Notes under the pieces: generated by a model
The model's input: only the letters and a program-made list of their open reading frames with translations
What the model was told of the DNA's origin: nothing
The model's database searches: none
Translations under genes and position numbers: made by a program
IMG/VR virus record: IMGVR_UViG_3300037461_000726
Location: 2,973 to 66,972 of that record
Origin: a virus
DNA: 64,000 bases
Strand: one strand, 5' to 3'
Shown: in pieces, positions 22,838 to 23,324 of the stretch
Layout: each line of letters starts with the position of its first letter
Numbering within the stretch: the stretch's first letter is position 1

Positions 22838-22945
22838 ATCGGGGAACTATCGGGCTCAGAAGTCTGTGTCCACACACCAAAGGCGGGAGTCGAACCCGCA
22901 ACGCCATTTTTTCAGAATGAAGTATCTGAACTCTACGCCACCGAT
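22838..22945 (-). ncRNA. Y RNA-like element 4 (YrlA-like, retains T arm)
   Basis: ATCGG-T-GG-CGTA-GAGTTCAG-ATACTTC ... GCGGG-TTCGACT-CCCGC ... CTGAGCCC-GATAGTT-CC-CCGAT; ends pair; immediately upstream of rsr. Confidence 0.7.
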
Positions 22946-22955
22946 TTTTATTTTT

Positions 22956-23030
22956 GCCGGGGGATAAACGATAAAGGAATTTTTTCAGCTACCAAAAGTT
23001 GATGAAGTATCCATTATCTACGCCACCGGT
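22956..23030 (-). ncRNA. Y RNA-like element 3 (minimal, no tRNA arms)
   Basis: CCGG-T-GG-CGTA-GATAATGG-ATACTTC ... CCTTTATC-GTTTATC-CC-CCGG. Confidence 0.65.
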
Positions 23031-23046
23031 TTTTATCAAAATGAAG

Positions 23047-23183
23047 AGTGGTGAACGGGAATCGAACCCGCGACCCGCTGATTGCAGTGAAGTATCTCTT
23101 ATCTACACCACGGTCAGGTAAACCGGGAAAAAGCGACAAAAGTCTTTTCTAGTCGGCTGCTCTACCAACTGAGCTATCGCCAC
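23047..23183 (-). ncRNA. tRNA-ordered Y-like RNA 2 (tRNA body, Ro-binding-type stem in the anticodon position)
   Basis: Acceptor GTGGCGA/TCACCAC, D arm GCTC-AGTTGGTA-GAGC, T arm GCGGG-TTCGATT-CCCGT, insert CTTTTGTC...GATAAGAG-ATACTTC. Confidence 0.7.
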
Positions 23184-23197
23184 TCTCCTTATTCTAG

Positions 23198-23324
23198 GGA
23201 TGGGGGCAGGATTCGAACCTGCGGCCTCATCATTAGAAGTGAAGTAACCATGACCTACGCCAGTCTTTCAACGGAAAAAGCGGCCAAGGAAATTTTCGCG
23301 CTCTACCCACTGAGCTACCCCATC
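23198..23324 (-). ncRNA. tRNA-ordered Y-like RNA 1
   Basis: Acceptor GATGGGG/CCCCATC 7/7, D arm GCTC-AGTGGGTA-GAGC, T arm GCAGG-TTCGAAT-CCTGC, insert CCTTGGCC...GGTCATGG-TTACTTC; no encoded CCA. Confidence 0.7.

Follow-up and report, generated by a model that had tools for sequence, protein, structure and literature searches.

Y RNAs in tRNA strand order upstream of a phage Ro60 gene: a probable circularly permuted YrlA variant whose acceptor is open

The YrlA RNAs are described as circularly permuted with respect to tRNA, their parts following one another in the order Ro-stem 5′ strand, T arm, closed acceptor hairpin, D arm and Ro-stem 3′ strand, the acceptor being closed and a free CCA absent (PMC4201824; 10.1101/312249). 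What the tRNA-like domain of these RNAs recruits is regarded as an open question (10.1101/312249). The stretch of DNA considered here (the window, 64,000 nucleotides (nt), positions 2,973 to 66,972 of the IMG/VR record IMGVR_UViG_3300037461_000726) is one part of a complete phage of 92,375 bp with direct terminal repeats, and it carries a gene for a Ro60 homolog, rsr, preceded upstream by four elements (E1, E2, E3 and E4) that have a GG(C/U)GUAG-N8-UACUUC strand in common. The first two of these elements, E1 and E2, are probably Y RNAs, partners of the phage's own Ro60, that belong to a widespread circular-permutation variant of YrlA in which the acceptor is open. All the features of the array lie on the minus strand, and their coordinates are those of the window.

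In both E1 and E2 the acceptor 5′ strand is followed by the D arm, the pyrimidine strand, a closed hairpin, the GGYGUAG-N8-UACUUC strand, the T arm and the acceptor 3′ strand. E1 extends from 23325 (position −1) to 23198 (N73), and its motifs start at 23317 (D arm, TAGCTCAG), 23280 (pyrimidine-side loop, CTTTTTCC), 23261 (GGCGTAG-N8-TACTT) and 23219 (T loop, GGTTCGA); in E2, which extends from 23184 (−1) to 23047 (N73), the identical four-motif series is found at 23176, 23133, 23109 and 23068. The first-pass annotation of the window had proposed that these two elements run in true tRNA order, and this is borne out by the order of the motifs, by the full-length scores of a covariance model described below and by about 50 homologs with the same topology.

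The pairing follows the tRNA plan. The acceptor 5′ strand of E1 (GAUGGGG, 23324-23318) forms 7/7 pairs with 23205-23199 (CCCCAUC), and G23325:C23198 adds a −1:73 pair, which gives an acceptor helix of eight pairs; the pairing proposed earlier stands, while its register is shifted to 1-7 = 23324-23318 plus the extra pair. The D arm (GCUC / AGUGGGUA / GAGC, 23315-23300) is accompanied by a G:C at the tertiary pair 15:48. It is followed by the Ro-type module (23289-23240), in which a pyrimidine 8-mer (23289-23282) and the loop strand GCUUUUU lead to a distal hairpin (CCGU/AC(U)GG with a 6-nt loop, 23274-23260), then to CGUA and a purine 8-mer (23255-23248) and then to UUACUUCA. The T arm, GCAGG UUCGAAU CCUGC, occupies 23222-23206. 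In E2, the acceptor (23183-23177 with 23054-23048, GTGGCGA/TCACCAC) pairs at 6/7 positions, and the Ro-type module (23142-23088) consists of a pyrimidine 8-mer (23142-23135), a distal hairpin (CCCGG/CCG(U)GG with a 9-nt loop, 23127-23108) and a purine 8-mer (23103-23096) followed by AUACUUCA. Within each unit the inner 8-mers are paired at 7/8 positions in E1 and 8/8 in E2, and a recount in the sequence returned the acceptor and inner-helix values of the first-pass annotation. The purine-strand motif, GGCGUAG in E1 and GGUGUAG in E2, is one or two differences away from the GNCGAAN0-1G of YrlA (Chen 2014), and the strands GGCGUAG / GCUUUUUCC are the putative bulge of the Ro helix. Folded alone, E2 forms the inner helix and the distal hairpin in its minimum free energy (MFE) structure. 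Positions 74-76 are CUA after G-1:C73 in E1 and CUU after A-1:U73 in E2, so that both RNAs would need a CCA-adding enzyme.

The existing models recognise these elements in part. The Rfam tRNA model (RF00005) matches E2 over model positions 1-71 with 44.5 bits (threshold 29, E 3e-6 for the window) and places a 68-nt insert in the anticodon loop, and on E1 it gives a misaligned partial match of 27.9 bits. ARAGORN calls no tRNA. In the place of the anticodon loop there is a conserved helix-hairpin module of 68-80 nt and not a 7-nt loop with an anticodon. A covariance model in tRNA order, of the kind that the first-pass annotation had suggested, behaves differently: the model R2, built from other contigs with the window and its nearest relatives left out, matches E1 with 116.9 bits (E 4e-28) and E2 with 104.2 bits (E 7e-25), in both cases over its full length. 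By comparison, the family models score tandem permuted arrays at 20-80 bits and real tRNAs at 50-67 bits (the latter with the model R1). Second, tandem tRNA-order copies were found by the model in five other loci (L074, L123, L139, L150 and L174), and pairs like E1-E2 are therefore common.

The extent of the family was evaluated with a scan pattern made of the D arm, N36-66, GGYGNAG-N8-TACTT, N12-32 and GGTTCRA, in which neither the acceptor nor the TROVE gene took part. The stretches that match it number at least 120 among metagenome contigs, 40 among viral contigs and 61 among genome contigs. When the 7 nt before U8 were compared with the 7 nt after the T stem in 196 distinct matches, acceptor pairing proved to be bimodal: it is 7/7 in 63 of them (about 0.2 expected by chance), and the others, which peak at 2-3 of 7, are tandem permuted YrlA arrays such as those of Bradyrhizobium. 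Eight of the 7/7 matches, mostly from metagenome-assembled genomes of Acidobacteriota, were set aside: they are repeats of permuted units whose acceptor hairpins bear GAAA or GCAA caps, and both readings pair in them; about 50 others stand alone, mostly without a T arm upstream and without a D arm downstream. A variant of the pattern with a 9-nt spacer yielded two candidates that were rejected, one a chance match within a coding region of an actinomycete (L008), the other an array of tandem permuted units (L015).

Two alignments were used to assess covariation, A1 with 47 sequences and A2 with 45, the latter fitted to the model, free of the window and its nearest kin, and the source of R2. Standard pairs fill 94.4% of the cells in A1, as opposed to 67.8% after shuffling and about 43% with slid partners, the acceptor pairs being there partly by construction, since 7/7 matches had been selected, which is a point against the reading proposed here. 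The covariation score of A1 is 0.706 (0.178 for shuffles and about 0.11 for slid partners), it ranges over 0.71-0.73 across A1 and A2, and A2 gives the same picture. The helices that were not selected on are paired too: the inner 8-bp helix at 94%, with double changes at 7/8 pairs, and the distal 4-bp stem with its conserved bulged U at 98.9%, with 13-21 double changes at each of the two pairs that vary. The loops of the distal stem are often GAAA, UUCG or UCCG, caps typical of closed structural hairpins. The tertiary Levitt pair 15:48 covaries as well (G:C in 33, A:U in 13 and A:C in 1 of the 47 sequences). A control based on the best 8-mer complement was dropped: its separation of the tRNA-order and tandem-permuted sets was weak, the strands being rich in purines and pyrimidines in general.

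From these data the common build of the family can be described as an open acceptor (usually of 8 pairs), a D arm, a short equivalent of the anticodon stem, a bulged helix, a hairpin cap, a variable loop and a T arm. The bulged helix is of the conserved Ro type (…CGYUUNUUCC / GGYGNAG…UACUUC, with GGCGAAG, GGUGAAG and GGCGCAG among the purine-strand variants of the homologs), and the hairpin cap stands where the anticodon loop would be. Compensatory changes occur in every helix among the approximately 50 independent homologs, and the earlier description of E1 and E2 as hybrids of tRNA and Y RNA, in which a hairpin-closed Ro-type stem replaces the anticodon loop, has held.

The family is linked to Ro60 genes. 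Of the 52 tRNA-order elements that come first in their array, 43 have a TROVE gene in the fetched locus, always on the same strand; in 28 loci it lies 40-700 nt downstream of the element, and in one clade, which includes crAss-like phages, it lies a few hundred nt upstream. The TROVE proteins closest to that of the window (69-71% identity; L009, L010/L011 and L014) are encoded in loci where one tRNA-order unit comes directly after a TTGACA promoter, with two stem-only Y RNAs and then the TROVE gene downstream of it. The acceptors of these relatives differ from one another by compensation (for example GGAUAGU/ACUAUCC and GGGUAGU/ACUACCC), and a permuted YrlA reading is impossible for their lone unit, since it lacks a purine strand upstream and a D arm downstream. 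More distant loci have other layouts: the YrlA of L013 (62% TROVE identity) is of the canonical permuted type, its acceptor closed, and so are those of two (L004 and L007) of the loci L003-L007 (45-55%), stem-type Y elements being all that was seen in the others.

R2 also matches two crAss-like phages, with 94.6-108.3 bits, namely the Bacteroides phage PhiCrAssBcn17 (L237:4104-4251) and crAssphage cr106_1 (L238:4115-4260), in which the element occupies unannotated DNA just past the TROVE gene. The TROVE gene of crAss001 has been reported as an early gene, in a paper in which Y RNAs go unmentioned (PMC8375218). A further tRNA-order Y RNA past a TROVE gene is found at 8017-8164 of L157, and the crAss-like set comprises Kehishuvirus and Mahstovirus. 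In PhiCrAssBcn17 a weaker second match of 42.5 bits lies about 100 nt beyond the first (L237 4359-4501), and in cr106_1 a transfer-messenger RNA (tmRNA) is annotated about 2.3 kb upstream of TROVE (L238 1-246), which places two tRNA mimics close together.

For three tRNA-order elements with high scores (L127 8385-8517, L092 3627-3764 and L073 2527-2659), several kb of flanking sequence contain no TROVE gene. Their neighbours are phage-like (DnaB helicase, metallophosphoesterase, thioredoxin), no Band-7 or RtcB gene stands beside them, and either the Ro60 gene is elsewhere in the genome or the RNA works without Ro60. In Caulobacter phage CcrColossus (L240 1573-1743) and Brevundimonas phage Kikimora (L242 2266-2340), tRNAs are annotated directly upstream of TROVE. 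These annotated tRNAs (tRNA-Gln and tRNA-Ser) fall within or next to runs of matches to the Y RNA model, the tRNA-Gln of CcrColossus being covered by a match of 68 bits, and they may be the tRNA-like domains of Y RNAs and not decoding tRNAs.

The relation between the two gene orders becomes apparent when the permuted YrlA of L013 is rotated in silico, that is, when its acceptor loop is cut and its ends are joined. The rotated sequence aligns end to end with the tRNA-order elements, and it is identical to that of L230 at 112/126 positions (89%) and to E1 and E2 at 80-82%, whereas just half of the unrotated sequence aligns. On a FastTree phylogeny of 110 TROVE proteins, the layout labels need 15 changes by parsimony (about 29 for shuffled labels), the labels being coarse and the sampling of the tree following the scan pattern; at least five of these changes are forced by well-supported branches, and the layouts interleave. 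The interleaving and the 89% identity after rotation indicate that the layouts interconvert repeatedly and recently and that neither is a relic; they have clearly switched several times. The suggestion, made when the elements were first noticed, that they are an evolutionary intermediate between tRNA and YrlA is thus too simple. It has been proposed that YrlA arose from dimeric tRNA transcripts (10.1101/312249). The middle of a tandem tRNA-order pair has the exact strand order of a permuted YrlA, and such pairs give this model of origin a concrete living configuration.

Among 38 distinct acceptors, positions −1 and 73 pair in 33 (G:C in 14, U:A in 11) and positions −2 and 74 in just 7, below chance, from which it follows that the helix is 8 pairs long and stops sharply. 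Of the 38, 12 encode CCA at positions 74-76 (p about 1e-11, taking 1/64 as the chance rate; the lineages are not fully independent). A sharp helix end together with an encoded CCA is, as far as sequences can tell, what real tRNA-type ends predict. The permuted relatives show the same signals: the acceptor loop of the YrlA of L013 reads acceptor 3′ strand, C73, CCA, UUUAU, G-1 and acceptor 5′ strand, a G-1:C73-CCA end common to its rotated and unrotated forms, and a CCA stands at the matching place in 27 of 101 tandem-permuted matches.

In these permuted YrlAs N73-CCA opens the nominally closed acceptor loop (for example CCGGUGU-N-CCA-UG-CACCGG; in L013 at 1295-1315), and Bradyrhizobium is among the carriers (L179, L180, L189, L196, L199, L216, L217, L221, L224 and L235). 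The YrlA of Mycobacterium smegmatis, which has a 7-bp acceptor, is cut by RNase P and gains CCA in vivo (PMC4201824), and processing of this type may be widespread among permuted YrlAs. Taken together, the N73-CCA of the permuted relatives and the processing in M. smegmatis make an open CCA end seem important in both gene orders; a tRNA-order gene would obtain this end without splitting the RNA in two.

E1 and its closest relatives have G-1:C73, followed by CCA in the relatives. Bacterial tRNA-His is identified chiefly by the G-1:C73 pair and CCA, which are recognised even in minihelices, and this makes a histidine-charged Ro60 ligand conceivable. It is rather unlikely that the open end is the point of the layout, in the sense that some tRNA-order Y RNAs, while in complex with Ro60, are matured to N73-CCA and aminoacylated or otherwise handled by acceptor-end enzymes. 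It is also conceivable that they act as a phage decoy against defence enzymes whose target is the acceptor end of tRNAs.

The pathway suggested by this architecture would begin with one promoter with a boxA-like leader, from which E1, E2, E3, E4 and rsr would be cotranscribed. Host RNase P at the 5′ side, and 3′ trimming together with the CCA-adding enzyme, would release E1 and E2 as RNAs of roughly 130 nt with tRNA-type ends; Ro60 would dock on the bulged helix, and the L-shaped tRNA body would show its free acceptor end to a tRNA-recognising partner.

Several observations weigh against this account of E1 and E2 as Y RNAs with an open acceptor. That they bind Ro60 we infer from motif sharing and gene linkage, which constitute the whole of the support. 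Neither element encodes CCA, the acceptor of E2 contains a C.A mismatch, and the −1:73 pair could shift or hinder cleavage by RNase P. Single-sequence folds are no better than those of shuffled sequences (z −1.2 and −1.5, within an overall range of −1.0 to −1.5), and the centre of E1 is misfolded in its MFE structure. The contigs from RNA libraries of relatives, discussed below with the promoter, cannot show RNA ends.

Among the other explanations, the one that survives best regards the tRNA body as a processing handle with no effector: RNase P and the 3′ enzymes would use it to free a Ro-binding hairpin RNA along with the rsr mRNA and the Y RNAs encoded downstream. The elements are indeed the first of the array, right behind the promoter, and tRNA-like punctuation is known for making RNA ends (mascRNA-type cleavage, as cited in 10.1101/312249). 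Nevertheless, the conservation of the elbow nucleotides and the 15:48 pair is as strict here as in the permuted YrlAs, which need no such processing, the G-1:C73-CCA end is the same whichever way the RNA is rotated, and the crAss-like element stands downstream of rsr, where punctuation for downstream RNAs is not needed. A mere handle is therefore unlikely.

It is very improbable that the locus contains a single canonical YrlA, made of the purine strand and T arm of E1 with the D arm and pyrimidine strand of E2 (about 23263-23120), the outer halves being debris. The Rfam YrlA model (RF02553) does find a cross-unit match of this kind, and of this kind only, at 23251-23130, and tandem permuted arrays with such a local order are common elsewhere, as in Bradyrhizobium; the match, however, has 22.6 bits, far under the threshold of 69. 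Across the two units the acceptor hairpin pairs at 3/7 positions and the inner helix has 3 Watson-Crick pairs of 8, no Ro stem appears in the MFE structure of that stretch, and two halves, conserved and perfectly complementary to each other, would be left as orphans. There is no purine strand upstream of E1, and hence no Ro-stem 5′ strand, and no D arm downstream of E2, and the nearest relatives have one unit with no partner halves at all. The first-pass annotation had likewise reported a poor acceptor hairpin for the permuted reading and no Ro-stem 5′ strand ahead of E1. Hardly tenable, too, is the notion that E1 and E2 are decoding tRNA genes with an intron-like insert that is spliced out, since the above-threshold tRNA match on E2, a very well conserved tRNA body and the CCA encoded in many homologs are outweighed by the silence of ARAGORN, by the approximately 24 nt (not a 7-nt anticodon loop) that are left once the Ro helix is removed, by an insert that has the motif of E3 and E4, covaries as a helix with tetraloop caps and, in the 68 nt of E2, matches no Rfam intron family, and by the fact that we know of no bacterial splicing route for such an insert.

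The gene rsr (22813-21425) starts 234 nt downstream of N73 of E2, is preceded by the Shine-Dalgarno sequence AAGGAG (22826-22821) and encodes 462 amino acids with a TROVE domain (Pfam TROVE, 1.3e-21) plus a vWA-like part; among solved structures, the one nearest to its product is 9KOP/9L5Y, from the Ro60 of Thermus phage phiLo (E 9.5e-19). The elements E3 and E4 have the usual strand order, as had been noticed at the outset. E3 (23029-22957) is a stem-only Y-like RNA, with the purine strand first (23024), the pyrimidine strand at 22968 and no tRNA arms. E4 (22945-22849) has its purine strand at 22939 and a T loop at 22896, followed by the pyrimidine strand; a T arm is present and a D arm is absent. 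The layout of E4 amounts to a third architecture (purine strand, possible anticodon-like hairpin, T arm, small hairpin, pyrimidine strand), which recalls Yrn1 or the YrlB of M. smegmatis, and the Rfam tRNA model reaches it just at threshold (29.4 vs 29) with an odd alignment. In the 13-nt spacer between E1 and E2 (23197-23185) there is an AAGGAG, then a GTG that opens a 26-codon frame through E2; the relatives do not keep this frame, and it is probably meaningless. A blastn search with the array against the phage collection gave no DNA match.

A promoter ahead of the array can be read directly in the sequence (23403-23374), with a −35 box TTGACA (23403-23398) and a −10 box TTTAAT (23379-23374) preceded by TG. 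It is not listed by a strict consensus promoter scan, the −10 box lacking an A at position 2, and a TTGACA box occupies the equivalent place in L009, L010 and L014. Between the promoter and E1 lies the motif GTTCTTTGAAA (23342-23332), which is also present just ahead of the tRNA-order element in L009 (1176-1186) and L014 (about 1166-1176). It resembles the boxA antitermination site of the rRNA operons of Firmicutes, and it may serve as a boxA-like leader. The phage of the window was found in two sequencing runs, both of wetland DNA, and in no RNA run. The Y array of L187 (same contig as L009) is covered, at 90-95% identity, by contigs from four wastewater runs labelled 'RNA-Seq cDNA', and two of these contigs end no more than 3 nt away from the start that the −10 box predicts (L187:1581 mapped to L009:1166). 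That these ends mark the transcription start is suggestive at best, given that contigs cannot prove a start and that the RNA status of the runs is guessed.

The conservation of G-1:C73-CCA in both gene orders within one clade suggests that the acceptor end may be used, and it narrows the search for a partner of the tRNA-like domain. Since both the permuted covariance model and the tRNA finders miss the variant, Ro60 loci thought to be devoid of YrlA may have one. Its presence in cultured crAss-like phages of Bacteroides intestinalis, in which TROVE is an early gene, makes it testable at the bench. The tRNA-order variant is absent from Rfam, and a Y RNA of this order is described nowhere in the literature searched, which did not extend to Burroughs and Aravind 2016, the supplement of Chen 2014 and two reviews; its novelty is provisional because the b7a-tRNA of Burroughs and Aravind (2016) is said to lie sometimes beside Rsr. 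In the same context, hits that overlapped annotated tandem tRNAs were discarded by Chen et al. 2014 (PMC4201824).

Several known systems resemble these elements in part. The Ro60 of Thermus phage phiLo is likewise a phage protein with phage Y-like RNAs (Yrl1 and Yrl2) encoded upstream; these were found by a CGAA motif and a structure predicted by RNAfold, and no tRNA-order module was reported among them (PMC12135203). The b7a-tRNA, as described in 10.1101/312249, is also a predicted tRNA-like RNA in tRNA order, located in RNA-repair neighbourhoods and 'occasionally' beside Rsr. It differs from E1 and E2, according to that citing description, in being like an authentic tRNA, in having a Band-7 partner and in that no Ro-type stem is mentioned, and an overlap between the two is possible. 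Natural circular permutations are also represented by two-piece tmRNA and by tRNA genes of Cyanidioschyzon merolae (Soma et al. 2007, cited in 10.1101/312249), with the same fold in either order; those are processed into functional tRNA or tmRNA, whereas here both orders persist as genes for Ro60 partners.

The comparison is closest with the bacterial Y RNAs themselves. Yrn1 of Deinococcus radiodurans is a Y RNA with D-like and T arms that run in the tRNA direction from its 5′ end, but its Ro stem replaces the acceptor stem and carries its own 5′ and 3′ ends, and an anticodon-like arm separates its D and T arms; E1 and E2 have instead an internal Ro-type stem in the place of the anticodon loop, and a free acceptor. 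The processed YrlA of M. smegmatis (PMC4201824) is approached by the permuted YrlA of L013 and by many of Bradyrhizobium, which encode N73-CCA in the acceptor loop; its open end comes from a permuted precursor cut in two, while the genes of E1 and E2 would give a single chain. With YrlA in general (RF02553), E1 and E2 share the Ro60/TROVE neighbour, a bulged Ro-type stem with a GNCG(A/U)AG-like 5′ strand, the D and T arms, an acceptor and a covarying 15:48 pair. The difference lies in where the chain is opened: in YrlA the ends of the chain lie in the Ro stem and a loop closes the acceptor, whereas E1 and E2 have an open acceptor and a hairpin that closes the Ro stem, and once the canonical YrlA of L013 is rotated, tRNA-order elements are 80-89% identical to it.

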